A stretch of 64,000 nucleotides of DNA from Candidatus Zymogenaceae bacterium (GCA_016933535.1 JAFGAS010000072.1:1410-65409), one strand, 5' to 3'; shown: positions 1,914 through 28,787, counted from the first letter of the stretch. Translations and numbers: made by a program. Notes: generated from the letters alone by a model not told the origin.

Positions 1914-2492
1914 ATGAAAAAGCAGCGCTTTTCGAGGAGGTTCTTTTCCCCGGTATTTCTGATATTCGTCATCATGTCTATCTCGTGGGGCGTCTATAAC
2001 CTGGCCTGGCGGCTTGGAAACGTCACGGTCCATCATCTCCTGGCCGACATATTCGGGACGCTTCTCTTCCTTTCGGTCACATTCGGGACCTGCGTCGTCT
2101 ATCCGATGGCCTTTCTGAGGGGAGCGTCCCTACCGGAGCGGGTTCTCGCCTCGCTGGTTAACCCGTTGATATGGGCGACAAAAGAGTGCATCAGGATGTT
2201 CGGCGCGTTCAGTCTTACGGAGTCCCTCTATTACTATTGTAACCCGCTCAACATCTGGCTCCTTTTGGGCATCATCGCACAGATGAGCATCATCGAGATG
2301 ATACTGCGGCACAGGCGCAAGAAAGCGGGCGAGAACATCCGGGTGTTCAGCATCCCGGTGGTCGCCGCGTTCGTGATCAGTATGGCCCTGGTGGTGGGGT
2401 TGTACGCCTGGGGCCGCGGCGAGAACATCTTCAGCTCCTATCTGGTTTTCTACAAGACGCTCTTCGGCCCCGGGGTGGGCCTTTCGTATTAG
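1914..2492 (+). CDS. integral membrane protein (hypothetical)
   Basis: 192-aa ORF with about 5 TM helices. It directly precedes the sulfatase gene with a 12-nt gap. Confidence 0.5.
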   Translation: MKKQRFSRRFFSPVFLIFVIMSISWGVYNLAWRLGNVTVHHLLADIFGTLLFLSVTFGTCVVYPMAFLRGASLPERVLASLVNPLIWATKECIRMFGAFSLTESLYYYCNPLNIWLLLGIIAQMSIIEMILRHRRKKAGENIRVFSIPVVAAFVISMALVVGLYAWGRGENIFSSYLVFYKTLFGPGVGLSY

Positions 2493-2504
2493 AGGAGGGG
2501 TACC

Positions 2505-3929
2505 GTGTCCGACAAGAAAAAAAACCAAATCATGTCCCATCCCGTGACCCGGAGGGACATGCTCAAGACAATGGCAACCGGCTCGGCTGCCGGTTTTTTT
2601 GGGATGGCGCTGCCCGGGGCGCTCGGGGGTGCGCCTTTTTCCGCCCTGCCTTTGGCGCCGAAACGCCCCAATATCGTATTTATCCTGAGCGACAACTGCC
2701 GGCCCGACTTCATGGGGTTTACCGTCCATCCGTTCATCAAGACGCCCGCCATAGACGGGCTTGCCGCCCAAGGCGTCTCGTTTGACAACGCGTTTTGCAC
2801 CACCTCGCTGTGCAGCCCCTCCCGGGCAAGCTTTTTGACGGGCGACTACGCGCATACCCACGGCGTTTTGAACAACCACATGCCCTGGACGGGGCAAAGG
2901 AAAATGTTCCTGGAGCGCCTGAAGCAGGCCGGGTACGACACCGGGTTCGTCGGCAAGTTCCACATGCCCGGCAACGGGCTCCCCGATCTACCGTTTCTGG
3001 ATACCTTCGTCTCGTTTGACATCAAGGAGAACCAGGGCCAGTACTTTGACTGTCCGCTGATCGTGGACGGAAAGCCTGAGGCCTCCAGGAAGGAATATCT
3101 TATAGAGGAGCTGACCGACCGGGCGATAGATTTCATCGGGCAGGACCACGAAAATCCGTTCTGCCTGTACCTCTCATACAAGACCGCCCATTTCCCGTTT
3201 TTGCCCCCGAAAGACCTCGCCGGCATCTACGCAAACGAGAAGGTGGACCTCCCTCCCGGGGCCGACTCCTGGCTCGGCAGGACAAACGGCAACGTCTTTG
3301 AGGGAACGATGGTCGGCTCGCTGGACGCGCTTTACCGGAGATACGGCGAGGCCATTACCGGTATGGACCGTGAGATCGGCCGTCTCATCAAGAAGATCGA
3401 CTCGTCCCCGCTTGCGGACAATACCGTCGTTATCTACGCGTCCGACAACGGCTATATGTGGGGCGAGCACCGCATTATCGGCATCAACTGGCACTACGAG
3501 GAATCTATCCGGATCCCCTTTGTCGTCCGGTGCCCGTGGCTCATACCCGACCCCGGCACACGCCGGTCCCAGATGATGCTCAACATCGACCTGGCCCCGA
3601 CGGTCCTGGAGATGGCGGGCGTCCCGGTGCCTGCCGACGTCGACGGTCAGAGCGCCGTGCCCATACTCCGCGACGGGGGTACGCCCGGGCGCAGCGCATG
3701 GTTCTACGAGTACTACAAGTATTTCCCGGAGAACGTCCCCACCATGCAGGGCGTGAGGACACGGACGCGCATGTACGTCGAGTTCGAAAAGGGGATGAGA
3801 CCGCAGCTGTTTGACCTGGTCCGTGATCCGGGCGAGCACGTCAACCTCTTCGGGACCGCCGAGGGGGACCGGCTTGTGCCCGGACTCAAAGCCATGATGA
3901 AAGACCTGAAGGCGGGAAAGCGTCTGTAA
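2505..3929 (+). CDS. arylsulfatase (Cys-type sulfatase, Tat-exported)
   Basis: Twin-arginine motif RRDMLK. The formylglycine site CSPSRASFLTG, the PNIVFILSD N-terminal metal-binding motif, the GKFH motif and 474 aa length are all typical of the sulfatase family. Confidence 0.9.
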   Translation: MSDKKKNQIMSHPVTRRDMLKTMATGSAAGFFGMALPGALGGAPFSALPLAPKRPNIVFILSDNCRPDFMGFTVHPFIKTPAIDGLAAQGVSFDNAFCTTSLCSPSRASFLTGDYAHTHGVLNNHMPWTGQRKMFLERLKQAGYDTGFVGKFHMPGNGLPDLPFLDTFVSFDIKENQGQYFDCPLIVDGKPEASRKEYLIEELTDRAIDFIGQDHENPFCLYLSYKTAHFPFLPPKDLAGIYANEKVDLPPGADSWLGRTNGNVFEGTMVGSLDALYRRYGEAITGMDREIGRLIKKIDSSPLADNTVVIYASDNGYMWGEHRIIGINWHYEESIRIPFVVRCPWLIPDPGTRRSQMMLNIDLAPTVLEMAGVPVPADVDGQSAVPILRDGGTPGRSAWFYEYYKYFPENVPTMQGVRTRTRMYVEFEKGMRPQLFDLVRDPGEHVNLFGTAEGDRLVPGLKAMMKDLKAGKRL

Positions 3930-4153
3930 CATAAACGGGATCGATGATGACGTCGCGGCCGCCCCCCAACGGCCCACGAAACGGCCCTTCCGGGGGCCGA
4001 ATGGGAGGTTCCGTCCTGAAGCTTTTTGACTTTTAACTGATACGACGATGTAGTATATTAGACCTATTTCACGCCGAGGCCGGCTGTGGACACGGCTCGT
4101 GCCCGCCGCGGTTTATACGAGAATATGCGCTAACGATTGCAGGCAAACAAAAA

Positions 4154-5287
4154 ATGAGAATACTTATCAATACCTCGCCTCTCGTTACGCCACTTACGGG
4201 AATCGGCCATTATGTCGCCAACCTTATACATTCCATGGTATCGTTAGAGCCGTCGCACGAATATTTCTTTTTCAACAGAAACTACGTTTCATCGGAACTC
4301 AAAAGTTCCCAAACAGGGACGGGTATACCGGCGAAACCACCTTTCTACAGCGGGATTCTGCCGCAGAAAATAACCTATGGATTAAGAAGACTATTTCTGA
4401 GCGCTCTTTTCCTGAAAAGTAAATACAATGTATATCATGAGACGAATTACTTTCCCCCCAGGGAGATCCCTTTCCCGACAATCAGCACTATTTACGATCT
4501 TTCGGTTCAGATCTATCCTCAGTATCATCCCATCGACCGGGTAAGAATGTTCGAAAAACATTTCTTGAAATATCTGTCTTCTTACCGATATATTATCGCC
4601 ATATCCAACAACACGAAAAACGACCTGGTCAGGGTGAGCGGATACCCCGAGGAGAGAATAGGCGTCGTATATCCCGGATATCATGGCAGATTTAGGGTCG
4701 TCAGCCAGGCGAGCGTAAAAAAGTATATTGAGGAGAAAAAGCTGCCGTCAAAATATATCCTTTTTTTGGGAACGCTGGATCCGCGGAAAAATATCCGGCT
4801 GCTCTTGGACGCTTATACGCTGCTGAATAGTTCTCTCAGAGAGAAATACCATATTGTCCTGGCCGGTTGGAAAGGATGGGATTATGAAGGAGTATTCAGA
4901 AGGATTGATGATCTGGGGATACGATCTTCGACCATCTACCTGGGATATGTCCGAGACGATGAAGTGCCGCTGCTCTATAATGGGGCTTCTCTTTTTGTCT
5001 ATCCATCCTTTTATGAGGGATTCGGTCTCCCCCTCCTGGAGGCGATGGCGTGTGGATGTCCCGTCATTACCACAAATGCATCTTCACTGCCGGAGGTGGT
5101 CGGCGATGGAGGCGTTATGGTCGACCCGTACGATGAATACGGCATGAGAGACAAGATGGAGATGATATTGACCGACGATAAGACAAGAACCGGTCTGAGA
5201 GAATACGGTCTTAAAAGAGTGGGTATGTTTTCGTGGGAAACCTGTGCGCAGCATACGCTGGACGTATATAAGAAAGCGGCCGACTGA
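4154..5287 (+). CDS. glycosyltransferase family 4 (GT-B, group 1)
   Basis: C-terminal EGFGLPLLEAMACGCPVITTNASSLPEVVGDGG motif of GT4 enzymes, 377 aa. The gene is visibly lower in GC than its neighbours. Confidence 0.9.
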   Translation: MRILINTSPLVTPLTGIGHYVANLIHSMVSLEPSHEYFFFNRNYVSSELKSSQTGTGIPAKPPFYSGILPQKITYGLRRLFLSALFLKSKYNVYHETNYFPPREIPFPTISTIYDLSVQIYPQYHPIDRVRMFEKHFLKYLSSYRYIIAISNNTKNDLVRVSGYPEERIGVVYPGYHGRFRVVSQASVKKYIEEKKLPSKYILFLGTLDPRKNIRLLLDAYTLLNSSLREKYHIVLAGWKGWDYEGVFRRIDDLGIRSSTIYLGYVRDDEVPLLYNGASLFVYPSFYEGFGLPLLEAMACGCPVITTNASSLPEVVGDGGVMVDPYDEYGMRDKMEMILTDDKTRTGLREYGLKRVGMFSWETCAQHTLDVYKKAAD

Positions 5288-5961
5288 ACATCCCGCATCC
5301 CGGCAGTCAGGGAAATCCTAAAGGCCGCCGGGTTTCCCTTCAGCCCTTATCCAACGGAATCGAAAATACCCCCCGATCTCTTTTTCATACGGACTATTAT
5401 AAGAACCGTAACGCCCGTCAGATAAGGCATTTACGCGCACCTCGAGGGCTTTGCCCCGCCCCCGCCTCCCCCCGTCATACGGACGACCGAAGGTACCCAC
5501 GCCACCCGACACGCGCCTTAATCCACAGCCCCCCCGCCTACGCGACCCCCGCACCCCCCCTTGCCGTCAGGAGGAACGGCACGTGCCGTGTCCGGCGGCC
5601 CACACCCCCCGGCCCTGCGGAAACATCCGCTTAGCCGTGCCGGCCCGCCCGCAATTTCGCCGTCTGTTCCCCCTCGTACCAACACCCCTTTCAGGGCTCC
5701 TTTTCGAAACCTTCTATATTTTCGACAAAGAACATAATAGCATAAGTATATATATGCAACATTTAGTATCTGCGTATTAACACAAGTAATTATATTGGCA
5801 ATCCTAATATAATGTTTGAATATTTCCTGTTATTGCGATATAATATTTTATATATAATATTGACAATAGGGCTGCCCGGGGGGGCGGGCGAGGCGTTCCG
5901 ATTTCCCCCCACACCCGCTTCCAGAGCGACAGACAATCCACATTCTACAAAGGAGTTCTAC

Positions 5962-6840
5962 ATGGCTTCACCGGAAAAGAGACTTCACTGGAACAAGGAA
6001 AAGGGTTCGTTACACCTCGTTCAGGACAACACGGAGCACCGGCTCTTTTTGATGAGAAAGGGCTTCATGGATTCGTTCTTCGACGAGATCGAGAACGTCG
6101 AGGGAAAAGACGCGCTGTCCATGACGATTCGAAAGATCCTCGAAAAGGCCGAAGCCCAATCCGTCGAAACCGCAAAACTCACCGTCGATACGCTCAACCG
6201 GCTCAAGGACGACCGCCTCCTGCCGCTTGCGATCGGCCCCGATGAGCTGCCGCCCATGTTTACCCAGACCGAGGGCACCCGGGAGTTAGTCGCGTTCGGC
6301 TCGGTGGTCTATCTTCTGGAAATGGCCGAGATCCTCAATGTCTTCAAGGAGGTCAGCGCCCAGATTCTGACCCCCCGGGGGGCGCGGGCAATCATGAGGA
6401 CGGTCGGCAGGCGCGCCGGCATGGCCGTGGGGGATGCGGCAAAGGCCAACTACAGCTGGGACAACCTCGACGCCGCCACGGCCTCCATGGACCAGCAGAC
6501 CAAGTTTATCTTTCCCCTCATGGGGTGGGGGAATCCCTCGGTGATCAGTGCCAAGGGCCCCGACGGAAACTATCTCATGCTCTACCGCTGTCACAACACC
6601 TATGAGGCCGACGGCGTCCGGTCTACCGAACCGGTCTGCGCCGTCTTCGCGTCGTTTCTGGCGGGGATAACCGAAAGCATCGTATCCACGCTCACCGGCC
6701 AGTCGGCCGAGTGCCGTGAGGTCAAGTGCGCCGCCGCGGGAGACGACTACTGCGCCTTTGCCGTGAAGATCAAGCCCAAGGGCTCCCCTGCTCTGGACTG
6801 GTCGGAGATCGCCGACGAATGGCGCGCCCTGGATACGTAG
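5962..6840 (+). CDS. V4R (4-vinyl reductase) domain protein
   Basis: The start was moved to the ATG at 5962, which is preceded by AAGGAG; the track ORF's N-terminal extension is AT-rich junk. The C-terminus CHNTYEADG...ECREVKCAAAGDDYCAFAVKIK fits the V4R Cys-rich signature. Confidence 0.6.
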   Translation: MASPEKRLHWNKEKGSLHLVQDNTEHRLFLMRKGFMDSFFDEIENVEGKDALSMTIRKILEKAEAQSVETAKLTVDTLNRLKDDRLLPLAIGPDELPPMFTQTEGTRELVAFGSVVYLLEMAEILNVFKEVSAQILTPRGARAIMRTVGRRAGMAVGDAAKANYSWDNLDAATASMDQQTKFIFPLMGWGNPSVISAKGPDGNYLMLYRCHNTYEADGVRSTEPVCAVFASFLAGITESIVSTLTGQSAECREVKCAAAGDDYCAFAVKIKPKGSPALDWSEIADEWRALDT

Positions 6841-7115
6841 GGGAACGCCGGTTGTCAATAATAGGTTATCGTGGGGCGGCACGCTGAGCCGCCCCACACC
6901 GTAGCACCCCGCCAAGCCTCTTTCATCGGGGCCCGGTGCGATAAGAGCTCCTCCGCAATAAAATATTCGTAGAATCTATCGGCCCATTCCCTGTTATTTT
7001 TACCCGGGTACTATTGACAAACCTATTTTACCCTGGTAAATTTATCCCATTGGTGCGCGTCTGTGGAAGACGCCGGAATTCAAACAGTACCCCAACGATA
7101 TATGAAGGACAACCG

Positions 7116-7748
7116 ATGGACACGAAACGGACATTCACGGCCTTTGCCGGCCATGAGTTGATCGCCTCGGGCGATATCGAGACGGCGATACGAACGGCAA
7201 AGGAGCAGATCGACGGCGGGCGGCAGGACCCCGTCATTTTCTTTGACGACCGGACCGGAAGGCAGATCGACTTTGACCTCCGCGGCACGCCCGAGGAGGC
7301 CCTGGCGCGGCTCGCGTCCCATCCCGAGTTTGCCGGGGCCGAGGCCGCGGCACAGCCGAAAAGCGGGCCGGGCCGCCCGAACCTGGGCGTGGTCTGCCGG
7401 GAGGTCTCCCTGCTGCCGCGCCACTGGGAGTGGCTGGCCGCACAATCCGGCACCGCCTCCGCAACGATACGAAGGCTCGTCGACGAGGACCGAAAACGAA
7501 ACGGCGGAAAAGAACGGGCGCGCATTGCCAGGGACGCCGCCGGAACGTTCATGTGGACGATGGGCGGAAACCTCCCCGGGTTCGAGGAGGCGTCGCGCGC
7601 GCTGTTCGCCGGGGACTACGGCCGTCTCGAGGGGCTGGTTGGCCGGTGGCCCCGCGACATCCGGGAGCACCTGGCGCGGCTGGCCGCAGAGGCCGCCCGG
7701 CTGCAAGACGAGGCCGGCGGCGGCAGCGCGGCGGCCCCGGCCCGATAA
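7116..7748 (+). CDS. DUF2239-like conserved hypothetical protein
   Basis: The start was placed at the ATG at 7116, which has an AAGGA RBS. Ala/Arg-rich 210-aa protein. The family assignment is from memory and is low-certainty. Confidence 0.45.
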   Translation: MDTKRTFTAFAGHELIASGDIETAIRTAKEQIDGGRQDPVIFFDDRTGRQIDFDLRGTPEEALARLASHPEFAGAEAAAQPKSGPGRPNLGVVCREVSLLPRHWEWLAAQSGTASATIRRLVDEDRKRNGGKERARIARDAAGTFMWTMGGNLPGFEEASRALFAGDYGRLEGLVGRWPRDIREHLARLAAEAARLQDEAGGGSAAAPAR

Positions 7749-7752
7749 GTCA

Positions 7753-7776
7753 CCCCAAAAGGCAGGCCTTTTGGGG
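7753..7776. terminator. gene-terminal hairpin CCCCAAAAGG-CAGG-CCTTTTGGGG (copy 1)
   Basis: 10-bp stem with a 4-nt loop, 5 nt after the DUF2239 stop. A 25-nt identical copy follows the next gene (8310-8334). Confidence 0.4.
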
Positions 7777-7910
7777 CCCCGTTGGATCACCCCACGAAGC
7801 AGGCTTCACTCACGGCCCCGATGGGAGAGAAGGAAGAGAAAGGACGGGCGGCGGGATTTGTTTTGTGTTATACTTTCGGCTGTGTTTAGCAAGAAATATG
7901 GAGGTATGTC

Positions 7911-8297
7911 ATGAACGATGCCCAGATCTTTCTGCTGATCGGCCTGGCCTACACGGCGATGGGCCTGGGGGCCCTGCTGAGCAAAGGCTTGTACAAACGG
8001 CTTCTCGATGACTTTGTCGATTCCCCCGCCCTCCTCTTCTTGACCGGCATCCTTACCCTTGTCCTCGGTTTCGTGCTGGTCGTCTCTCACAACGTATGGG
8101 TCATGGGCTGGACGGTCATCATCACGATCTTCGGCTGGCTGGCCCTGGTCAAAGGCTTTATGATCCTGGCCTTCCCCGGGTTCTACGGCTATATCGGCAG
8201 TAAGTTGAAAATGAGCGGAGCATTCATGCGCGTATACCCCGTGATCGTCCTCTTGATCGGCGTCTTTCTGCTCCTGCTGGGCTTCGGGGTGCTGTAG
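7911..8297 (+). CDS. small 4-TM membrane protein (hypothetical)
   Basis: 128 aa, entirely hydrophobic helices. Confidence 0.5.
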   Translation: MNDAQIFLLIGLAYTAMGLGALLSKGLYKRLLDDFVDSPALLFLTGILTLVLGFVLVVSHNVWVMGWTVIITIFGWLALVKGFMILAFPGFYGYIGSKLKMSGAFMRVYPVIVLLIGVFLLLLGFGVL

Positions 8298-8309
8298 CCC
8301 CCAATGACC

Positions 8310-8334
8310 CACCCCAAAAGGCAGGCCTTTTGGG
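8310..8334. terminator. gene-terminal hairpin (copy 2 of CACCCCAAAAGGCAGGCCTTTTGGG)
   Basis: Identical 25-nt element 13 nt after the stop at 8297. Confidence 0.4.
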
Positions 8335-8479
8335 AGCCCGACGGGGGGCAAGAAAAGAAATGCGGAAAAATAGTCTTCAGGATGTAGTCGTGGGATTACC
8401 CGGCTTCGTTCGTAATGGCGTGTTTTCGACGCCGGACGCGACTTATCGCGTCCGGCCTTCTTGTATCCCCGTACGTGTC

Positions 8480-8902
8480 TCAGCCCTTCTTTTCCGGTGA
8501 TTTGACCAGGCTTGCCGAGTTGACGTAACTGAAAATGAACAGCACGTAGAGAGCCGCCGCCAGTATCCACGACGGGACCATGTCGCTCACGGTGACGTAG
8601 CCGTAGACGAAGAGATAGATGGTCGTCAGGTCCAGCCCTAACTTCACCGGGAACATCGTCAAAATGATGATCCCCCGGCGCTCCACCGGCTTTCGATCCG
8701 CCCAGATCAAGAGGAACGTCCAGCCGGCCATGAGGGCCGCGCCGACGGCCAGCGTGTACCGAATCCCGCCGGTTACCTCGATTCCCTCGATGCCGTAGAT
8801 CGCCATTCCCAGCTGCGGCACCAGCATCGGGATGACCCACAAACCGTCTAAGACCGCCCCCGCCCAGTAACTGATCCTGAGCCACAGAATTCTCCTGTCC
8901 AT
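8480..8902 (-). CDS. membrane protein (hypothetical), downstream of marR
   Basis: 140 aa, 4 TM helices, co-directional and 50 nt downstream of the MarR gene. Confidence 0.5.
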   Translation of the reverse strand: MDRRILWLRISYWAGAVLDGLWVIPMLVPQLGMAIYGIEGIEVTGGIRYTLAVGAALMAGWTFLLIWADRKPVERRGIIILTMFPVKLGLDLTTIYLFVYGYVTVSDMVPSWILAAALYVLFIFSYVNSASLVKSPEKKG

Positions 8903-8952
8903 ACATGCCTCCTGGTTAGTTAGTCTAACTAATCTTTAGGTTAAAAAAAAGA

Positions 8953-9384
8953 TCAATCTCTCCCGTGAGAGACGACCTTGCCGAATATCTCGACCAGCTG
9001 TTTTACCTCGTCGTCCGTCAGCGCGTCCTTGACCCTGTCGGCAAAATCGGCAAAGGCCTTCACCTCCGCCTCGATGAGCTCCGTCCCCTCCGGGGAAAGA
9101 TGTATGTACTGCACCCGCGAGTCGTCGGCCGACTGCGTCTTGGCCACCAGGCCGTTCTTGATGAGCCGTTGGACGCCGATGCTGGCCGAGGCCTTGGATA
9201 TCTTGAGATGGTCGGCCAGCCCGCTGACCGTGGGGCCGCCCAGGTGGAATATCGCCTCCAGGTAGATGAGCTGGTTTACCGTTACGTTGGAATATTTGCC
9301 GCGCCCGACGATCTCTTGTTTATACCGGGTGATGGAGGTGTGGAAGATCTCGGTTATCTGTATCAGTAGTTGTATGATATCCAT
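8953..9384 (-). CDS. MarR family transcriptional regulator
   Basis: Winged-helix region VNQLIYLEAIFHLGGPTVSGLADHLKISKASASIGVQRLIKNGLV...D.R...L...G, 143 aa. Confidence 0.85.
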   Translation of the reverse strand: MDIIQLLIQITEIFHTSITRYKQEIVGRGKYSNVTVNQLIYLEAIFHLGGPTVSGLADHLKISKASASIGVQRLIKNGLVAKTQSADDSRVQYIHLSPEGTELIEAEVKAFADFADRVKDALTDDEVKQLVEIFGKVVSHGRD

Positions 9385-9478
9385 GAGCCGGCCGCATAAT
9401 GTTAGTCTGTCTAACTAAATACAACGGATGGTTTGGTTTGTCAAGGGAAAAATAGATGGGGGGGACATGATGACTAAC

Positions 9479-9661
9479 GTCATTGCGAGGAGGCCCAACA
9501 GGGCCGACGTGGAAAAGCATAATAATGTCGCCTCCGGCGACGATTACTATTGTCATTGCGAGGAGCCGAAGGCGACGAAGCAACCTTCTCACTGTCACCG
9601 CACATATACCGTCATTGCGAGGCCGTCGTAGACGGCCGTGGCAATCCCCTCACTGTCACCG
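9479..9661. repeat. cluster of GTCATTGCGAGG...CACTGTCACC repeat units upstream of the GIY-YIG gene
   Basis: GTCATTGCGAGG occurs at 9479, 9552 and 9611. The units at 9552-9600 and 9611-9661 end in CTCACTGTCACCG. Confidence 0.6.
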
Positions 9662-9757
9662 TATAACAACGGATTGTCTTTTATCCCCTCCCCTGCTATG
9701 ATAGGCGTCGTTTATCAGCGCGGAAAAACAGTGGAAAAGCAATATTACACATACATT

Positions 9758-10018
9758 ATGACGAATACGTATCATACCGTCCTTTATATCGGGGTAACCA
9801 ACGATCTAAAGCGAAGGGTCTACGAGCATAAGGAAAAGCTGGTAAAGGGGTTTACGAAAACCTATAACATAACGAAGCTTGTCTATTACGAGTCATTCGC
9901 CGATCCGGCCAACGCGATACAGAGAGAGAAGCAACTAAAGGGACGCCCAAGGGCAAAGAAGATCGAACTGATAGAGAACTTCAATAAAGCATGGGACGAT
10001 CTTTACGATTCGATTTAG
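9758..10018 (+). CDS. GIY-YIG nuclease family protein (small, about 87 aa)
   Basis: YTYIMTNTYHTVLYIGVTNDLKRRVYEHK...GFTKTYNITKLVYYE...AIQREKQLKGRPRAKKIELI is the classic GIY-YIG/UvrC-N-like small-protein signature. The start was placed at the ATG at 9758. Confidence 0.8.
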   Translation: MTNTYHTVLYIGVTNDLKRRVYEHKEKLVKGFTKTYNITKLVYYESFADPANAIQREKQLKGRPRAKKIELIENFNKAWDDLYDSI

Positions 10019-10029
10019 CTTTAGTTACC

Positions 10030-10196
10030 CACTGTCATTGCGAGGGAGTCCGGCACTTCGGCTGTCATCGCGAGGGGCCGATAGGCCCCGTGGCGATCCC
10101 CTCGCGATCATCGAAAACGGCACTTCGCCGCAAGCCCAGGGGCGGTTCCCGGTGACAGTCAGGAGATTGCCACGGTCGTTTCACTCCCTCGCAATG
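10030..10196. repeat. downstream repeat units of the same family, including an inverted copy (CCTCGCAATGACGG at about 10183-10196)
   Basis: CACTGTCATTGCGAGGG at 10030-10046 and CTGTCATCGCGAGGGG at 10062-10077. The reverse-complement unit GGTGACAGTCAGGAGATTGCCACGG...CCCTCGCAATGAC at 10151-10194 is an inverted repeat relative to 9611-9661. Confidence 0.6.
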
Positions 10197-10423
10197 ACGG
10201 TACATATATAGGTATAAGAAAGGACCACACGCCTCCCTTTAATTCCTGCCGATAAATTTATCGAAAAAGCTTGACACTCGTTTAACAAAGATTTATCCTT
10301 TGGGTAGCAATGGGGCGGTCGCAGATGCCACAACTCGAAACACTCCTCACTTCTCCCTAAGCCTCCGTCTTATCACTCTATCGGGATTATATAACCGATG
10401 GTTACTAGAATTATGGAGCTAAA

Positions 10424-12598
10424 ATGAGGTATCCCAGTCAAGTGAACCGCCTTATCATCTTATGTATCTACGTGGCGCTACTTTTCATGGCTTCGAAGCT
10501 TGCACTTGATTCATGGATTCCACCTACAGGCGAAAAAGGCCTCTGGTTTTATGCCGGCCTTGCAGCCCTTCTATTGGGAAACCTTCTCGTTTCTCCATTC
10601 TATACCAAGCCTGTTAATTCGCTCTCTTATGGCGTATCTGCTCTTATAGCACTTCTGGCGATTAATCTATGGCCTTCTAAAGAATATTCTGGTTTCGACA
10701 AGTTCCTCTGGAGTGCTACTACTGGTTACATTGCACTAGTACTGGTTGCAAGTATACTCTCTATTAGCCTTAAGGACTCATTGCGACCTCAGATACAGAA
10801 GATTGCTAGTTCCATGCGTATCTTTTGTGACATTATGGGTACACCCAAGGTGATATTTTCTTCAGTTGTCTTAGTATCACTTGTTGTCTTCCACCGGAAT
10901 TCAGCAAGAGAATATATTATAATTGGAATTGCCTGGGCGGTCATAATCGGCCTACAACCATTAGAGAACATCCTCGATCTTCTGCGGCGATTACGGAAGG
11001 TTTGGTGGAGAGATCAGCTTTCGGCACCTCTAGGAATTGTCGTTGGACATCAAATCCCTGATATCCTATTGGTGCGGCAAAATGAAGGCGGTCTCGCCGC
11101 TTTCGGTGACACTATAGTTGCTTGTAGTGAAACAGGATCACCTAGTATCTATATGGCGTTGGACCTTGTCGGTTTCTCAGAGGGACGGTGGCGTCGTGCT
11201 ATTCGCCTTAACACACCGGAACCCGTCACCGAACAACTCGGTTCCGTCTTCAGTCAAGTTGAATCAACGGCCATTGCGGTTAAAGCTGATATTGACGGCA
11301 TTGGGGTAAATATTGAGGAATGTAATCAAACATGGTGCTCAAGGGAACAGCTAATTGGCTTGGTTGCACCAAACACCGACCTTACGAAACTATATATTGA
11401 AATCGTTCGAAGTGATTTATCGTTGGAAGAAGGACGTCTGGTCGAAGTCAACATAGGCGCCAGATCAGTTATTTATCAACTTATAAATGGTTTGACACGG
11501 GAGGAAATCTTACAACAGAAAAATACTAGGGGTTTTGTAAGTGCTACTGCGAAAAAGATTGGCTATTGGAACCCTGCAAAAAGCAGTTTTGAAGTTGTCA
11601 AGTGGATACCGAATCCGAACGCTCCTGTCTTTCTCGTTTCTTCATCTGATACCGGAGTAAATAAGCAAGCAGTGGGTTTCTTTCCAAAAACGAACTACCC
11701 GGTATCTATTAACACTAATAGCTTGGTTACTCATAATACGGCGATCCTAGGAATCCTAGGTTCAGGTAAATCCTTTCTCGCAATAGAACTCGTTGAGCGT
11801 TTAATCCAGGCTGGGGTTAAAGTAATATGTCTGGACCTAACGAATCAATACGCACGCGAACTTGGACCATATCTAAACCGACTTGAAGATGAGAACGTTT
11901 TCTTGGACAGACTACGTACTGACTGCTCGGACGGTAGAAATAATGTAAATAGGAATGTCGAAGAGGGTGGGAGTATATCAAAATTTAGCAGGGAAATGAC
12001 AGTACATTTCTCTAGGTTTCTTTCTACGGACGATGAACGTAGATTACTTATCTATAACCCGGCTTCTTTCGAGGTCTGGCGGCAGGACAGCAAACCGTAC
12101 CAAGATAAAGCATCAATGGCAACACTAACACCGACGGAAATTACGAGGACTATTACTGAATCCGCGTTAGTTGCAGCACAAGCGCTTGGCATGACAGACA
12201 ATGCTAGATGTTGTTTGGTTTTCGAGGAAGCACACTCGCTCATACCCGAATGGAACGCTGTCGCGAGTGAAGGTGATAAGACCGCCACAAATGGGACCGC
12301 AAAGGCTATACTACAAGGCAGGAAATTCGGCCTCGGGTGTATCGTGGTAACTCAACGAACTGCAAATGTCACCAAGAGTATACTCAATCAATGTAATACA
12401 GTTTTTGCACTTCGAGTATTCGATGCAACCGGCATGGAATTCCTCAAGAACTACATTGGAGAAGATTACGCCAATGTACTTTCTGCACTCGAGGATCGTC
12501 ACGCTGTCGTATTCGGTCGTGCTTCTTCATGTAGGGACCCAGTACTAGTCAGATTGAACGATAGAGAAACATTCCTGTCAGCGTTCAGAGGGGCGTAA
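10424..12598 (+). CDS. membrane-anchored HerA-like (DUF87 / FtsK-HerA superfamily) ATPase
   Basis: The N-terminal roughly 200 aa carries 5-6 TM helices. The C-terminal half has the HerA-type Walker A motif HNTAILGILGSGKS, Walker B CLVFEEAH, and GRKFGLGCIVVTQRTANVTKSILNQCNTVFALRV (the HerA arginine-finger / QCNT region). GGAG RBS. The gene is low-GC. Confidence 0.75.
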   Translation: MRYPSQVNRLIILCIYVALLFMASKLALDSWIPPTGEKGLWFYAGLAALLLGNLLVSPFYTKPVNSLSYGVSALIALLAINLWPSKEYSGFDKFLWSATTGYIALVLVASILSISLKDSLRPQIQKIASSMRIFCDIMGTPKVIFSSVVLVSLVVFHRNSAREYIIIGIAWAVIIGLQPLENILDLLRRLRKVWWRDQLSAPLGIVVGHQIPDILLVRQNEGGLAAFGDTIVACSETGSPSIYMALDLVGFSEGRWRRAIRLNTPEPVTEQLGSVFSQVESTAIAVKADIDGIGVNIEECNQTWCSREQLIGLVAPNTDLTKLYIEIVRSDLSLEEGRLVEVNIGARSVIYQLINGLTREEILQQKNTRGFVSATAKKIGYWNPAKSSFEVVKWIPNPNAPVFLVSSSDTGVNKQAVGFFPKTNYPVSINTNSLVTHNTAILGILGSGKSFLAIELVERLIQAGVKVICLDLTNQYARELGPYLNRLEDENVFLDRLRTDCSDGRNNVNRNVEEGGSISKFSREMTVHFSRFLSTDDERRLLIYNPASFEVWRQDSKPYQDKASMATLTPTEITRTITESALVAAQALGMTDNARCCLVFEEAHSLIPEWNAVASEGDKTATNGTAKAILQGRKFGLGCIVVTQRTANVTKSILNQCNTVFALRVFDATGMEFLKNYIGEDYANVLSALEDRHAVVFGRASSCRDPVLVRLNDRETFLSAFRGA

Positions 12599-12693
12599 GT
12601 CAATCTTCGTGCTTTGAAGTGAAAACTAAAGGGTCGAGTTTGGCTCTAGGTGTTAGTTGAAGGTCCCACTAAACAAGGAGAGCTATATCCAAA

Positions 12694-13965
12694 ATGATCG
12701 AAACAAAACCAAAACTAGGTGTCGCCATACTTGAGCGGCCTTTGTTGAGAGTATTAGAAACTCTTTGGGAAGGTCCAGTAGCGCCTGACAACCTGGACGC
12801 AATCGAACTAGCCATTCGCGCATTTCTAGTTTCCCCCGTACTGATAGCGTCTAGAGTGCAAGATAGTCAGTGGGGAACGGCCTGGGAAGACGTCGTTGAG
12901 GATCCATCGAAAGAGTCAATTGAGAATGACGAGGCTTTTAGAGACTCTCTTCTAGATTACGAGTTTTCGGACCCTAAAGTCGCACATCCTTATACAACCA
13001 TCAGCAGTGATGAAAGCGATTTCTTGAAATCACTGGTTTTAAAAGAGATAGAGCCTCAGGCATTAGAGGCGCTCCCAAGGTGGATTAAGAGAAACGGAGA
13101 AGCCTACGCTTATCTAGATGCCTGGTATGATGGCTATGCGGAGAAAGAGTGTGAAAACCGTGCGCGTCTAATGTATGGTTACAGAGATGAACTACTATAC
13201 GAAGATGAACTAGAAAAATTGGATAGAGACCACCTATATGCTCACCCACTTTTTCATCTCGGCCCAGCCAACCATGCAAACTACCTTGTAGGTTGTCATC
13301 GTGCAGGGCTTACTGTCTATGGTATATCCCCTATAACGAAGATTTGCGCTACCCACATTTTTTCAAAGTGGCCGGACTACCTATTTAAGACTCTAGGAGA
13401 GGAATATAAGAGAGCATCAGAGGAATTACGAGGACCTGGTATGGGGGTAACACTTCCCCCTTTAACCGCTCTTCTTCTTTCCCGCGCACGAACTAGAGAT
13501 GATATTCCAGTAACCCTCCGTGACTTAAGAGAAGAGTATACCGAGGCGCGCGATGAGCTTTGGAGTATGCTTTCGGAAATGTGGTTTGCTCCTACCTGCG
13601 AGGATCAGCTAAAGATACTTCGGCAGTTGAGTAATGCCGCAAGTTCGCTTTTCGTGGCTGCATTTCCTGAAAGATTTGACGCACTAGGTTTAGCCATTAG
13701 CGCCACGGACTTGCTGACCCTAACCGTATCCTCAACTTTATCGACCATTAGGGAGCATTTTAATCCGGGGGCACGCGTGGGGGCTATTTCTTTCGCATCG
13801 AAACTCGCTAAGGACTTGCGCCTTCATTTGTTGGGTTCACATCACATTCTGAAGCGACACTTTACCGAAGACGAATTGAAGGAATTTGGAACCGGGCGTC
13901 TATGTTGGGCCTTCTTTTTCGTCCTATCCGGCTTGCCTAACAATGCCATCCAGCCGAGAGAATAA
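12694..13965 (+). CDS. hypothetical protein, HerA-like ATPase partner (no recognisable domain)
   Basis: 423-aa ORF 95 nt downstream with an AAGGAGAG RBS. It has the same low GC. It is acidic, alpha-helical by composition, and has no motif I can assign. Confidence 0.6.
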   Translation: MIETKPKLGVAILERPLLRVLETLWEGPVAPDNLDAIELAIRAFLVSPVLIASRVQDSQWGTAWEDVVEDPSKESIENDEAFRDSLLDYEFSDPKVAHPYTTISSDESDFLKSLVLKEIEPQALEALPRWIKRNGEAYAYLDAWYDGYAEKECENRARLMYGYRDELLYEDELEKLDRDHLYAHPLFHLGPANHANYLVGCHRAGLTVYGISPITKICATHIFSKWPDYLFKTLGEEYKRASEELRGPGMGVTLPPLTALLLSRARTRDDIPVTLRDLREEYTEARDELWSMLSEMWFAPTCEDQLKILRQLSNAASSLFVAAFPERFDALGLAISATDLLTLTVSSTLSTIREHFNPGARVGAISFASKLAKDLRLHLLGSHHILKRHFTEDELKEFGTGRLCWAFFFVLSGLPNNAIQPRE

Positions 13966-14380
13966 ATTTCGATTCTTCTCGACACTGATACAACCCCTCG
14001 CCAGGAAAATAAGGAAGCCGCTAGACGATCCTCTCTTCCGCACTCATGACAACAACCACAACAATCTCCCTTCCTCTAGTAGTTACTGATAGTTGCATTG
14101 TTGCAGGGTAGTTGTGCTTATTACAACGACTTGTTGTACTTGTTGTTGTTGTCGCACTATTACCGGATACTATTACCGGATACCATCACCAACATCATCG
14201 CCCTCGATTCCTTCTCTTTCGGGTTAGGTGTATTCCCTTATCTCCCCCCCTACGAAAAAACACCCCCCTTTCTCATTACGCTTGCATTTTTCACCCAAAG
14301 CGTCTATTATCGTCCTACCTCTCCGTTCAGTACGACATACAGGCCCCATTTTCTTCGGACACATTCAGAGAAGGGACATC

Positions 14381-15061
14381 ATGGCCCGTTTTGAAATCTC
14401 CCAATTCAACGACAGAAACCCCAAGAAAAAGAACCACCCCCCCGGCCGCACAAAGATCGCCGATTCGCTGCGGCTGCTCTTGCGCGAAAAGGACTTCAAC
14501 GCCATCACCACCGCCGAGATCGCCAAGAACGCCGGGGTCACCGAGGCGCTCATCTACAAGTATTTCAAAGACAAGCGCGACCTCCTCTACCAGGTCCTTG
14601 CCGAATACATGGAGCATTACATCATCCAGGCCCACCACGAGCTCAACGGCATCAAGGGGGCCTTCAATAAGCTCAGAAAGACCATCTGGACCCACATCAA
14701 CGTCTATGCCACCGACCGCGTCTTCGCAAAGATCCTGATGCTGGAGGTCAGGAGCTTCTCCGACTATTACATCAGCGAGCCCTACCGGCTCGTCAAGGAA
14801 TACAGCGTCCTGCTTTCCGACATCATCGAGGAGGGCATCAAGAACGGCGAGATCAGGGACGACATCCCTCCCCCGCTCATGTGCCAGGTGATCCTGGGGG
14901 GGATAGAGCACGTCTGCCTGACCAGGGTGATCTTCAACCGGGAGATCCAGCCCGACGCGATGACCGACGACCTTACCAGGATCATCTTCCGGGGCATCGA
15001 AAATCGCAAAGGCGACCGAGAAAAAAAAGGAGGCAATCCGGATAATTTTCTTGACAAATAA
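14381..15061 (+). CDS. TetR/AcrR family transcriptional regulator
   Basis: N-terminal HTH LREKDFNAITTAEIAKNAGVTEALIYKYFKDKRDLL. The start was moved to the ATG at 14381; the upstream part of the track ORF is a low-complexity extension. Confidence 0.85.
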   Translation: MARFEISQFNDRNPKKKNHPPGRTKIADSLRLLLREKDFNAITTAEIAKNAGVTEALIYKYFKDKRDLLYQVLAEYMEHYIIQAHHELNGIKGAFNKLRKTIWTHINVYATDRVFAKILMLEVRSFSDYYISEPYRLVKEYSVLLSDIIEEGIKNGEIRDDIPPPLMCQVILGGIEHVCLTRVIFNREIQPDAMTDDLTRIIFRGIENRKGDREKKGGNPDNFLDK

Positions 15062-27509: not shown

Positions 27510-28418
27510 TTAGTTGAGGATGTAATTGGACGGATCCACGGGGATCCGGTTGATCCTGACCTCGTAGTGGAGGTGGGAGCCGATGGAGCGGCCCGTGCTG
27601 CCCATCAGGCCGATCTTCTGGCCCCGCGATACCCGGTCGCCTTCATGGACAAGGATTGCCGACAGGTGCGCGTAGTTGGTAGAAATACCGTACCCGTGAT
27701 CGACGCTTATCAGGTTGCCGTAGCCTGACTCTATACCGGCAAAGATCACAATGCCGTCGGCCGAAGCATGAATCGGCGTACCGATCTTGTTGGCAATATC
27801 GTATCCTTCGTGCATCTTGATGGTACGGTTGATGGGGTCCCTCCTGAAACCAAAGCACGAACACAGGAAACCCTTGGCGGGCCAGATCGAAGGGGTTGAA
27901 TCGAGCAGATTACCCTGATCTTCTAAAAATATGAGAAGCTCCTGGAGGCTTTGTTCCTGACGCTTGGATTTTTCACCCAGCTGCATCATATCGGCAAGTA
28001 TCTTGGCGGCGGAAACCTCGTCGTCGTGGTCCTTTTTTTCCAGATCCCTGTCGCCGTTTGATGTTCCCCCGATTCCAAAGAGCTCAGACTCCCCCCCGGT
28101 CGATCCAATGTTGAGCATTGCACAGATCATGGTATTGGTCTCGCTCATCTGTTCGACCTTTGCGGTAAGATCCTTGAACTGCTTTTCAAATATCTCGATC
28201 TGATCGTGCTGCATTCGGTTTTCTTCCTTGTAGTACGAAAGCTCAAGCATCTCCAGACGGATCGTAAGATAGCTGTAAAGCATGTAGGAGAAAGCTATCA
28301 GAATAAGCAGTGCGGAAAAACCGGTAATCGCAAGCGTGATGTTGGATACTTTATACTTGGATAGCCTGTCGGCCTTGTCGTATATAATAAGGATGGAATA
28401 GTATGTTTTTTTAATCAT
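27510..28418 (-). CDS. M23 family (LytM-type) metallopeptidase with an N-terminal TM segment and coiled coil
   Basis: HEGYDIA...GTPIHASADG...HLHYEV motifs of peptidase M23, 302 aa. Confidence 0.85.
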   Translation of the reverse strand: MIKKTYYSILIIYDKADRLSKYKVSNITLAITGFSALLILIAFSYMLYSYLTIRLEMLELSYYKEENRMQHDQIEIFEKQFKDLTAKVEQMSETNTMICAMLNIGSTGGESELFGIGGTSNGDRDLEKKDHDDEVSAAKILADMMQLGEKSKRQEQSLQELLIFLEDQGNLLDSTPSIWPAKGFLCSCFGFRRDPINRTIKMHEGYDIANKIGTPIHASADGIVIFAGIESGYGNLISVDHGYGISTNYAHLSAILVHEGDRVSRGQKIGLMGSTGRSIGSHLHYEVRINRIPVDPSNYILN

Positions 28419-28787
28419 AAGTGAATGCGAGTATTATGCGGTGGATAATATTTTAAATAGCCCCGTTCTCGCATCAATGACGTCCTCCCACCTTCCCTTT
28501 TCCATCCCTTCCCCCCACCGGACCCATTTTAAAGCGACCCACACCGATTTTGACATATATCACAAATAACGGAATAAAGTCAAATACTTTTACATTTCGG
28601 CCCGTTTTTTGATGAAAAAATGCCAATAAAGGGACCGAGCGACGTCTTTGGACGCCATTCTTCCCCAAGGGAGCATCGCCCGAGCCGTGAAATCACCATT
28701 TCCGTCCTATACGCTCAGAGCGGAGAATATCTTCGTTGCGATTCTGCTTCTTTTAGCTGATACCCGACCCTTCCCCAAGGCGGGCGG

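Follow-up and report, generated by a model that had tools for sequence, protein, structure and literature searches.

A predicted transmembrane HerA-type ATPase in a low-GC island of a Candidatus Zymogenaceae bacterium, and the orphan gene beside it

A short island of low GC content lies among ordinary host genes in a 64,000-nt stretch of DNA from a Candidatus Zymogenaceae bacterium (GCA_016933535.1, JAFGAS010000072.1:1410-65409; this whole stretch is referred to as the window), and its content is two co-directional open reading frames (ORFs), here called gene A and gene B. Gene A encodes a 724-aa protein in which six predicted transmembrane (TM) helices precede a HerA-clade ATPase, and gene B encodes an acidic 423-aa orphan protein. 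A preliminary description of this DNA had taken the two for a candidate two-gene system; relatives of the two genes do not occur together in other genomes, and a dedicated two-gene system is not supported. We consider it probable, if not strongly so, that the island is a short foreign segment holding two independently moving genes, of which gene A represents a stand-alone HerA protein with six TM helices (6TM-HerA) that resides in defence islands and has no constant neighbour. That the gene A family is related to defence we hold with somewhat greater confidence.

The proposed pairing can be assessed from both sides. Tblastn searches found gene B in none of the 86 loci that carry gene A relatives, and among called genes and Pfam families no gene B relative was seen downstream of gene A in its three closest relatives or on the two plasmids that carry the family. 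No DUF87/HerA gene, in turn, stands beside the gene B relatives in the loci L001, L004-7/L098, L094, L095, L097, L100 and L102 or in the P0008 contig. The neighbours found there are FeoB and a HepT/MNT module (L001), Abi_C and a DpnII-type enzyme (P0008 contig), a glycosidase fragment (L004-7 and L098), EtfA (L094), a protein with an HExxH motif (L095), a protein with an Rx4H motif (L097) and small ORFs with a DUF433/PIN module (L102). In every locus that could be inspected, about eight on the gene B side, the homologues of gene B lie apart from any HerA-like gene, and the two-gene system put forward in the preliminary description is not supported. As this case shows, foreign genes can lie side by side without forming a system.

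To describe the composition of the island, we calculated GC content in 4180-nt segments over the 64 kb, taking as the comparison set all segments that do not overlap positions 10201-14380. With a GC content of 0.453, the island is the single lowest segment of this length (z = -6.4), the non-overlapping segments having a mean of 0.561, a standard deviation of 0.017 and a minimum of 0.524. The GC content of third codon positions (GC3) is 0.40 in gene A and 0.43 in gene B, versus 0.79-0.85 in six flanking host genes. Because of this low GC content and the contrast in GC3 to the host genes, a foreign origin of the segment through horizontal acquisition is supported, as had been suggested earlier. 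The drop in GC at about 10.2-14.4 kb, which had been judged by eye, is borne out by the computed values with its boundaries accurate, and the two ORFs lie exactly where they had been placed, each preceded by a GGAG-type ribosome-binding site.

Gene A is, judged by its sequence, a HerA-clade ATPase proper and not a type IV coupling protein (T4CP) or a member of the FtsK family. The Pfam model DUF87/HerA reaches 44.5 bits (cut-off 23.2; residues 417-485), whereas P-loop_TraG (17.5, cut-off 25.8) and TrwB_AAD_bind (16.4, cut-off 20.5) both stay below threshold, and no Pfam match to the FtsK_SpoIIIE motor or gamma domain was obtained at E <= 1. PADLOC models for HerA reach 6e-24. The HerA/DUF87 motifs to which the preliminary description had pointed are present: Walker A (G443-S450), Walker B (E601 E602) and QRT (Q644 R645 T646) show no variation among 24 relatives and reach at least 90% conservation in 74. 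Searches of PDB sequences with the family profile return the antiphage HerA chains 8wiv, 9c1m, 8xau, 8yho and 8ziq together with the archaeal 4d2i (Sulfolobus HerA), and the top 50 Foldseek matches in the PDB are all HerA proteins, from HerA-NurA, SIR2-HerA and DUF4297-HerA complexes. The earlier preference for HerA over a conjugative ATPase is thus well founded. The NCBIfam HerA_antiphage models give 50.5 and 48.6 bits versus cut-offs of 800 and 850, and with about 50 bits from HerA equivalogs whose cut-offs are 800-970, gene A is related to these families only distantly and does not belong to them.

The AlphaFold2 (AF2) model of gene A, with a predicted local distance difference test score (pLDDT) of 78, consists of helices at residues 6-195, a beta-rich region at 200-430 (strands at 200-261 and 310-429) and then a RecA-type domain. 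By hydropathy, residues 1-190 contain six TM-like segments, which supports the prediction that the protein is membrane-anchored. Because the Foldseek alignments, 480-600 columns long, cover nearly the full length of HerA targets of 458-670 aa that include the barrel, a HAS-type beta-barrel is predicted to be retained N-terminal to the ATPase, with the membrane domain added in front of it. The preliminary description had the TM helices replace the HAS-barrel; the helices are there, as six hydrophobic segments, but no replacement is seen, the beta-rich region being kept in both the AF2 model and the Foldseek alignments. The NCBI annotation starts the protein at M22 (position 10487), giving 703 aa and cutting into TM helix 1. 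The 724-aa start at the ATG at 10424 is the better call because conservation in the family alignment begins at about residue 5 and this codon has a GGAG 5 nt before it.

The relatives of gene A form more than 1000 full-length protein clusters at 55-61% identity, and 271 matches to the family occur in 185,579 species genomes. At 37-61% identity, they spread over more than a dozen phyla, the taxa including Nitrospirota, Acidobacteriota, Planctomycetota, Chloroflexota, Bacteroidota, Firmicutes, Cyanobacteria, Proteobacteria, Saccharibacteria, Leptospira and Campylobacterota. Among 2.9 M viral contigs the family does not occur, and a set of 72,556 plasmid records holds two full-length matches, both on plasmids typed as non-mobilizable. 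Within the family, identity amounts to 53-57% in the TM domain, 46-50% in the beta region and 71-73% in the ATPase, and the TM-domain residues R9, W41, G52, P58, P63, G139, H157 and E163 are each at least 90% conserved among 74 sequences that are 37-60% identical overall. Because the TM domain is better conserved than the beta region and keeps H157 and E163, its conservation, as read from the alignment, exceeds the need of a passive anchor. The family is uncharacterised, curated libraries listing it just as "DUF87 domain-containing protein"; none of the curated defence models and none of the searched literature describes it, and full-text searches of the literature for a transmembrane HerA in defence found nothing.

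We surveyed the neighbourhoods of gene A relatives in 80 loci, taking five genes on each side. Recurring restriction-modification (R-M), Hma or Iet genes are found in at least 25 of the 80, a count that is a lower bound, and relaxase, VirB or Tra genes do not recur in these loci, in agreement with the earlier preference for a defence context over a conjugative one. Neighbour clustering gives gene A no constant partner; what does recur around it belongs to restriction-type and other defence systems, and the 111 nearest neighbours outside the recurring clusters match 143 different Pfam families. NurA is absent both from the window and from the Pfam and cluster assignments of the neighbours in the 80 loci.

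In L012, L014, L016, L018, L105/L106 and L107, the gene A relative stands in the order HmaA (SNF2 helicase), gene A, HmaB (DUF1156 methylase) and HmaC (DUF499), and a partial form of this arrangement is present in L008, L024 and L048. The stop/start overlaps between HmaA, gene A and HmaB measure 4 bp in the called genes of L012, L105/L106 and L107. These Hma-embedded copies belong to several independent lineages and include the closest relatives of gene A (60-61% identity). In 12 loci, type I hsdM/S/R genes are no more than five genes away; the gene A coding region overlaps hsdM/S in six loci, and in a seventh it is 13 bp away. A type III Mod methylase occurs within five genes in four loci, with gene A preceding Mod in L025, L034 and L065, and IetAS is near gene A in three. 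Single neighbours, on both sides, include RmuC, PD-(D/E)xK proteins, RNase_T-BRCT, HNH, Mrr, a deaminase, Schlafen/AlbA_2, DarT, AbiGi, SieB and type IIG enzymes. The annotations of two plasmids support this defence context independently. On the Arcobacter plasmid p121, the order is hsdS-hsdM-RhuM-hsdS-hypothetical protein-SLATT-[DUF87]-RNA-binding protein-hsdR-SprT, and on the Aminobacter plasmid pANY103b the gene A relative lies between AbiEi/AbiEii and two reverse transcriptases.

In being nested with overlapping stop and start codons, gene A relatives resemble the genes embedded in Hma (DUF499-centred, BREX-related) and type I R-M systems, that is, the HEC candidates and those of the PrrC type. 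Genes nested in Hma systems are usually defence genes, seven of nine tested candidates having given protection (Payne et al., bioRxiv 10.1101/2024.01.29.577857). The nine published HECs comprise ABC ATPases, GmrSD-like proteins and RNases, none of them of the HerA type, and DUF87 appears in the supplement of that paper only as generic P-loop matches (bioRxiv 10.1101/2024.01.29.577857). Gene A has no match among the HEC and PDC models of PADLOC v2. Embedding in Hma systems is found in relatives of gene A; unlike the embedded HEC candidates, the copy in the window is not inside an Hma or R-M system.

The Hma and type I R-M operons of L107 (10948-12775) and L109 (the Arcobacter plasmid, 2418-10445) hold further nested genes, encoding an SMC_N/AAA_15-type ATPase with a 199-aa partner, RhuM, SLATT and an RNA-binding (Schlafen-like) protein, so that one operon can house several unrelated cargo genes. 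In L010 (6336-9764), a gene for a response-regulator/HTH_17 protein overlaps the start of the gene A relative by 4 bp, its N-terminal helix-turn-helix (HTH) weakly matching the MADS mad1 model, and a membrane protein of the SieB family (superinfection exclusion) follows 19 nt after the gene A relative.

Gene B has no match in Pfam, NCBIfam, PADLOC or PHROGs. Its product is acidic (66 D+E versus 46 K+R) and mostly helical, as the preliminary description had said of this domain-less protein. It has 15 close relatives, and a profile search extends the wider family to 328 representative clusters of about 350-420 aa; 45 distant members of this superfamily carry no Pfam domain. A metagenome scan added only six loci, all short, and gene B is absent from the viral contigs and from the plasmids. 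Conserved positions include E/D13 at the end of strand 1, E38, R42, DYEF, CHRAG, R268, R279, E281, R286 and E394. The copy in the window extends by about 23 C-terminal residues (TGRLCWAFFFVLSGLPNNAIQPRE, 13897-13965) beyond the end (...EFG) of 12 of 12 aligned relatives, which may be due to loss of the stop codon or to an extension that arose locally. From its surroundings, gene B is an orphan unrelated to gene A, found in variable regions that are rich in toxin-antitoxin modules or in defence genes. Upstream of two gene B relatives, motifs were noticed by eye in proteins that match no PADLOC model: RHNVIH (Rx4H, HEPN-like) in L097 (893-1687) and HEASH (HExxH, metallopeptidase-like) in L095 (30-707).

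Several points weigh against reading the island as two independent genes with gene A as a stand-alone defence protein. The association of the gene A family with defence derives from neighbourhoods; in about two thirds of the 80 loci, recurring R-M, Hma and IetAS clusters are missing from the five genes on either side, and the nearest neighbours include some housekeeping genes (enolase, adenylosuccinate synthetase, DNA polymerase III alpha). The 64-kb window itself contains no R-M, Hma or Iet gene, and likewise no methyltransferase. The gene B side of the co-occurrence test comprises about eight independent loci, mostly short contigs. Lastly, the spacer between the two genes is only 95 nt long, and a scan of it found neither a terminator-like nor a promoter-like site; co-transcription, and with it co-expression, is possible at this locus.

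One alternative keeps the two genes together as a modular pair, in which the TM-HerA is combined with a variable downstream effector, much as HerA is with NurA, Sir2 or DUF4297, and gene B is one such effector, perhaps a diverged PIN-like nuclease, the two being functionally paired here although the pairing is not conserved; we regard this as unlikely. A co-directional gene does follow within 100 nt downstream in 32 of 75 loci, and many of these genes encode nucleases or other enzymes of nucleic acids (RmuC, a small PD-(D/E)xK protein, RNase_T-BRCT, HNH_2, Mrr, a deaminase, Schlafen AlbA_2 and PDDEXK_1). However, the downstream gene is convergent in 22 of the 75 loci and an R-M subunit in others, and the upstream genes are equally diverse and defence-like (type IIG enzymes, Mrr-REC, YgjP, integrase), as would be met by chance in a defence island. 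Because equally diverse defence genes also lie upstream of gene A, a variable effector is not needed to account for the data. Genes A and B are alike in GC3 and lie close together with no terminator between them, but the relatives of gene B occur by themselves, next to FeoB, EtfA, a glycosidase fragment or toxin-antitoxin modules. As for the nuclease, E/D13 closes strand 1 and E38 is invariant, whereas the putative third and fourth acidic residues of a PIN domain are not conserved across the wider gene B superfamily, and a diverged PIN-like nuclease is a weak lead.

Less likely still, in our judgement, gene A might be an accessory subunit, a membrane-bound translocase that "captures" DNA and feeds it to the nucleases of Hma/BREX-related, type I and type III systems, the copy in the window being an orphaned remnant. 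The fixed site between HmaA and HmaB, with its 4-bp overlaps, recurs in several lineages including the 60-61% relatives, the overlaps with hsdM/S and the place before type III Mod would fit as well, and the mad8 model of MADS matches gene A (1e-14). DndH and the BRC "capture" systems use HerA/FtsK ATPases, and such ATPases recur in methylation-linked systems (PMC10853773, PMC12839542). Against this, at least 55 of the 80 loci are without a recurring R-M or Hma gene within five genes, as is the window, and the protein encoded in the window is full length with all catalytic residues intact. Moreover, other unrelated genes are nested in the same operons, and gene A is not one of the three genes by which the Hma core is defined (PMC12839542). 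This 2026 survey of BREX-related systems describes the DUF499 systems as having that three-gene core, places HerA/FtsK only in the different "capture" system and mentions no DUF87 or transmembrane component (PMC12839542), and no such component is described in the DndFGH paper (PMC10853773).

That gene A could be a coupling protein of conjugation, or a DNA-transfer ATPase of the FtsK/TraB type belonging to a mobile element, as its N-terminal TM helices, its FtsK-HerA superfamily motor, weak sub-threshold matches to TraG P-loop, TrwB, VirB4 and TraC models, recombinases in some loci and one locus with ArdC, SSB and a RepB primase might suggest, is very improbable, given that all T4CP/VirB4 scores fall below curated cut-offs and DUF87 above, that the top 50 structural matches are all HerA, that relaxase, VirB and Tra genes do not recur and that full-length copies on plasmids are rare and on non-mobilizable replicons.

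With gene A taken as a stand-alone defence-island protein, it can be compared with systems already described. Sir2-HerA and DUF4297-HerA (Nezha / Gao_Her) share with it a HerA-clade ATPase, a beta-barrel N-terminal to the motor and an occurrence in defence islands, and they give its best matches (8wiv, 8wod, 8xau, 8zit, 9c1m, 8j4u). In these systems the effector is seated on the ring's barrel face (PMC11472057), whereas in gene A a 195-aa, six-helix membrane domain is fused there. Unlike them, gene A is single, with no Sir2 or DUF4297 gene and no constant partner; its scores of about 50 bits, versus cut-offs of 800 and 850, do not admit it as a member, and gene B matches no PADLOC model. The HerA-NurA resection machine is similar in fold and motifs, 9x1m and 4d2i being top Foldseek matches, but gene A is predicted to be membrane-anchored and is mobile and patchily distributed, and it is not part of a conserved repair operon; no NurA is found in the window or among the assigned neighbours in the 80 loci, and gene B has no Pfam match. 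FtsK/SpoIIIE and VirD4/TrwB likewise have N-terminal TM helices followed by an ATPase of the hexameric DNA-pumping superfamily; gene A differs from them in its HerA-type beta-barrel and in lacking a conjugative or cell-division context, and Pfam scores below the cut-offs, with no conjugation genes recurring in the 80 loci, set it apart. Assignment to MADS (mad1-mad8) was also rejected, the match to the PADLOC model for its ATPase, mad8, being limited to the ATPase domain of gene A (1.3e-14) and the window containing no methyltransferase or R-M-like genes.

Tmn, SieB, SLATT and the TM effectors of CBASS are membrane-acting defences in which an NTPase or sensor is joined to TM helices. By analogy with Tmn/SieB-type defences, a membrane-directed logic of abortive infection or exclusion is plausible for gene A. 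Gene A is not itself a Tmn protein, the sequences being unrelated, with no PADLOC Tmn match and with a ring translocase motor in place of a KAP NTPase.

We tentatively propose, by analogy and with less than even confidence, a specific mechanism in which the membrane domain would act as the effector. Gene A would form a hexameric ring that binds or translocates DNA, as in other HerA proteins. Because the membrane domain is fused to the barrel face, the ring would hang under the inner membrane, with the hexamer placing a collar of about 36 helices in the membrane. This collar would occupy the face on which Sir2, DUF4297 or NurA dock on other HerA rings; in the published case, the SIR2 effector ring docks on the HerA beta-barrel face, over the DNA channel (PMC11472057). 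Invading DNA and ATP would engage the ring, a signal would reach the collar, and the output may be permeabilisation of the membrane, leading to abortive infection, or blocking or capture of DNA at its site of entry. A bolder claim, which we think possible but somewhat more doubtful again, is that 6TM-HerA proteins constitute a widespread anti-phage or anti-plasmid immunity in a single polypeptide that Hma, type I and type III systems have co-opted, gene B then being an independent defence gene or an effector with a fold not represented in the PDB.

HerA rings switch on soluble effectors such as Sir2, DUF4297 and NurA. If the proposed mechanism is true, DNA sensing by a ring translocase would be tied directly to the membrane, an arrangement of which HerA-based immunity offers no described example. 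The gene A family has many members, is conserved in more than a dozen phyla and carries no name in curated libraries, and because of this size and of its fixed site inside Hma operons, a single cloning experiment could open up a sizeable part of the "dark matter" of defence.

The features of the island and its junctions are collected in Table 1.

Table 1. Positions of the island, its two genes and the adjoining segments, numbered from the first nucleotide of the window.
Feature	Position	Strand	Basis or remarks
Left-junction repeat cluster around the GIY-YIG ORF	9479..10198	.	six GTCATTGCGAGG copies
Low-GC island	10201..14380	.	GC 0.453, z = -6.4; GC3 0.40/0.43
Gene A, 724 aa, 6TM - beta (HAS-barrel) - HerA ATPase	10424..12598	+	Pfam DUF87, PADLOC HerA, Foldseek
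Gene A, membrane domain (aa 1-195), predicted	10424..11008	+	six hydrophobic segments, eight AF2 helices
Gene A, beta-rich region (aa 196-430), read as retained HAS-barrel plus further beta domain	11009..11713	+	AF2, Foldseek
Gene A, HerA/FtsK-type ATPase domain (aa 431-724)	11714..12598	+	GILGxGKS, EEAH, TQRT motifs
Gene A, Walker A	11750-11773	+	invariant motif
Gene A, Walker B	12215-12235	+	invariant motif
Spacer between genes A and B	12599..12693	+	95 nt, contains the gene B ribosome-binding site
Gene B, 423-aa acidic orphan protein	12694..13965	+	ORF with ribosome-binding site
Right junction, non-coding, 415 nt	13966..14380	.	GC 0.44-0.48, GC skew -0.29

The island borders on ordinary host genes, a MarR gene on the left (8953..9384, minus strand) and, on the right, genes for a TetR regulator (its ATG at 14381), an acyl-CoA synthetase and a BKACE enzyme. 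It had been called repeat-flanked, a description that does not hold: the six copies of GTCATTGCGAGG (five direct and one inverted, versus 0.39 expected by chance) are all found at 9479-10198, to the left of the island, and there is no copy to its right. No direct repeats or tRNA were found at both ends of the island, and the 64-kb window contains no tRNA gene and no Rfam match. The repeats surround an ORF of 126 aa (9638..10018, GC 0.44) that matches Pfam GIY-YIG at 2e-15 and is enclosed by imperfect longer inverted arms at 9552-9600 and 10150-10198, so that the segment looks like a small GIY-YIG-associated repeat element in a low-GC patch of its own just left of the island. The right junction is pyrimidine-rich on the plus strand, with a strong skew of C over G, and carries short inverted repeats of the ACAACAAC / GTTGTTGT type at 14048-14061 and 14140-14153.

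Elsewhere in the window, a low-GC patch (0.45) at 4154-5287 encodes a family 4 glycosyltransferase, with a weaker Pfam GT4-conflict match, and is probably another foreign insertion. Further patches of low GC content (0.45-0.48) lie at 875-1243, at about 1000-1500 and at 28001-28500, the first of them coinciding with a Cys-rich ORF of 122 aa that has no Pfam match.

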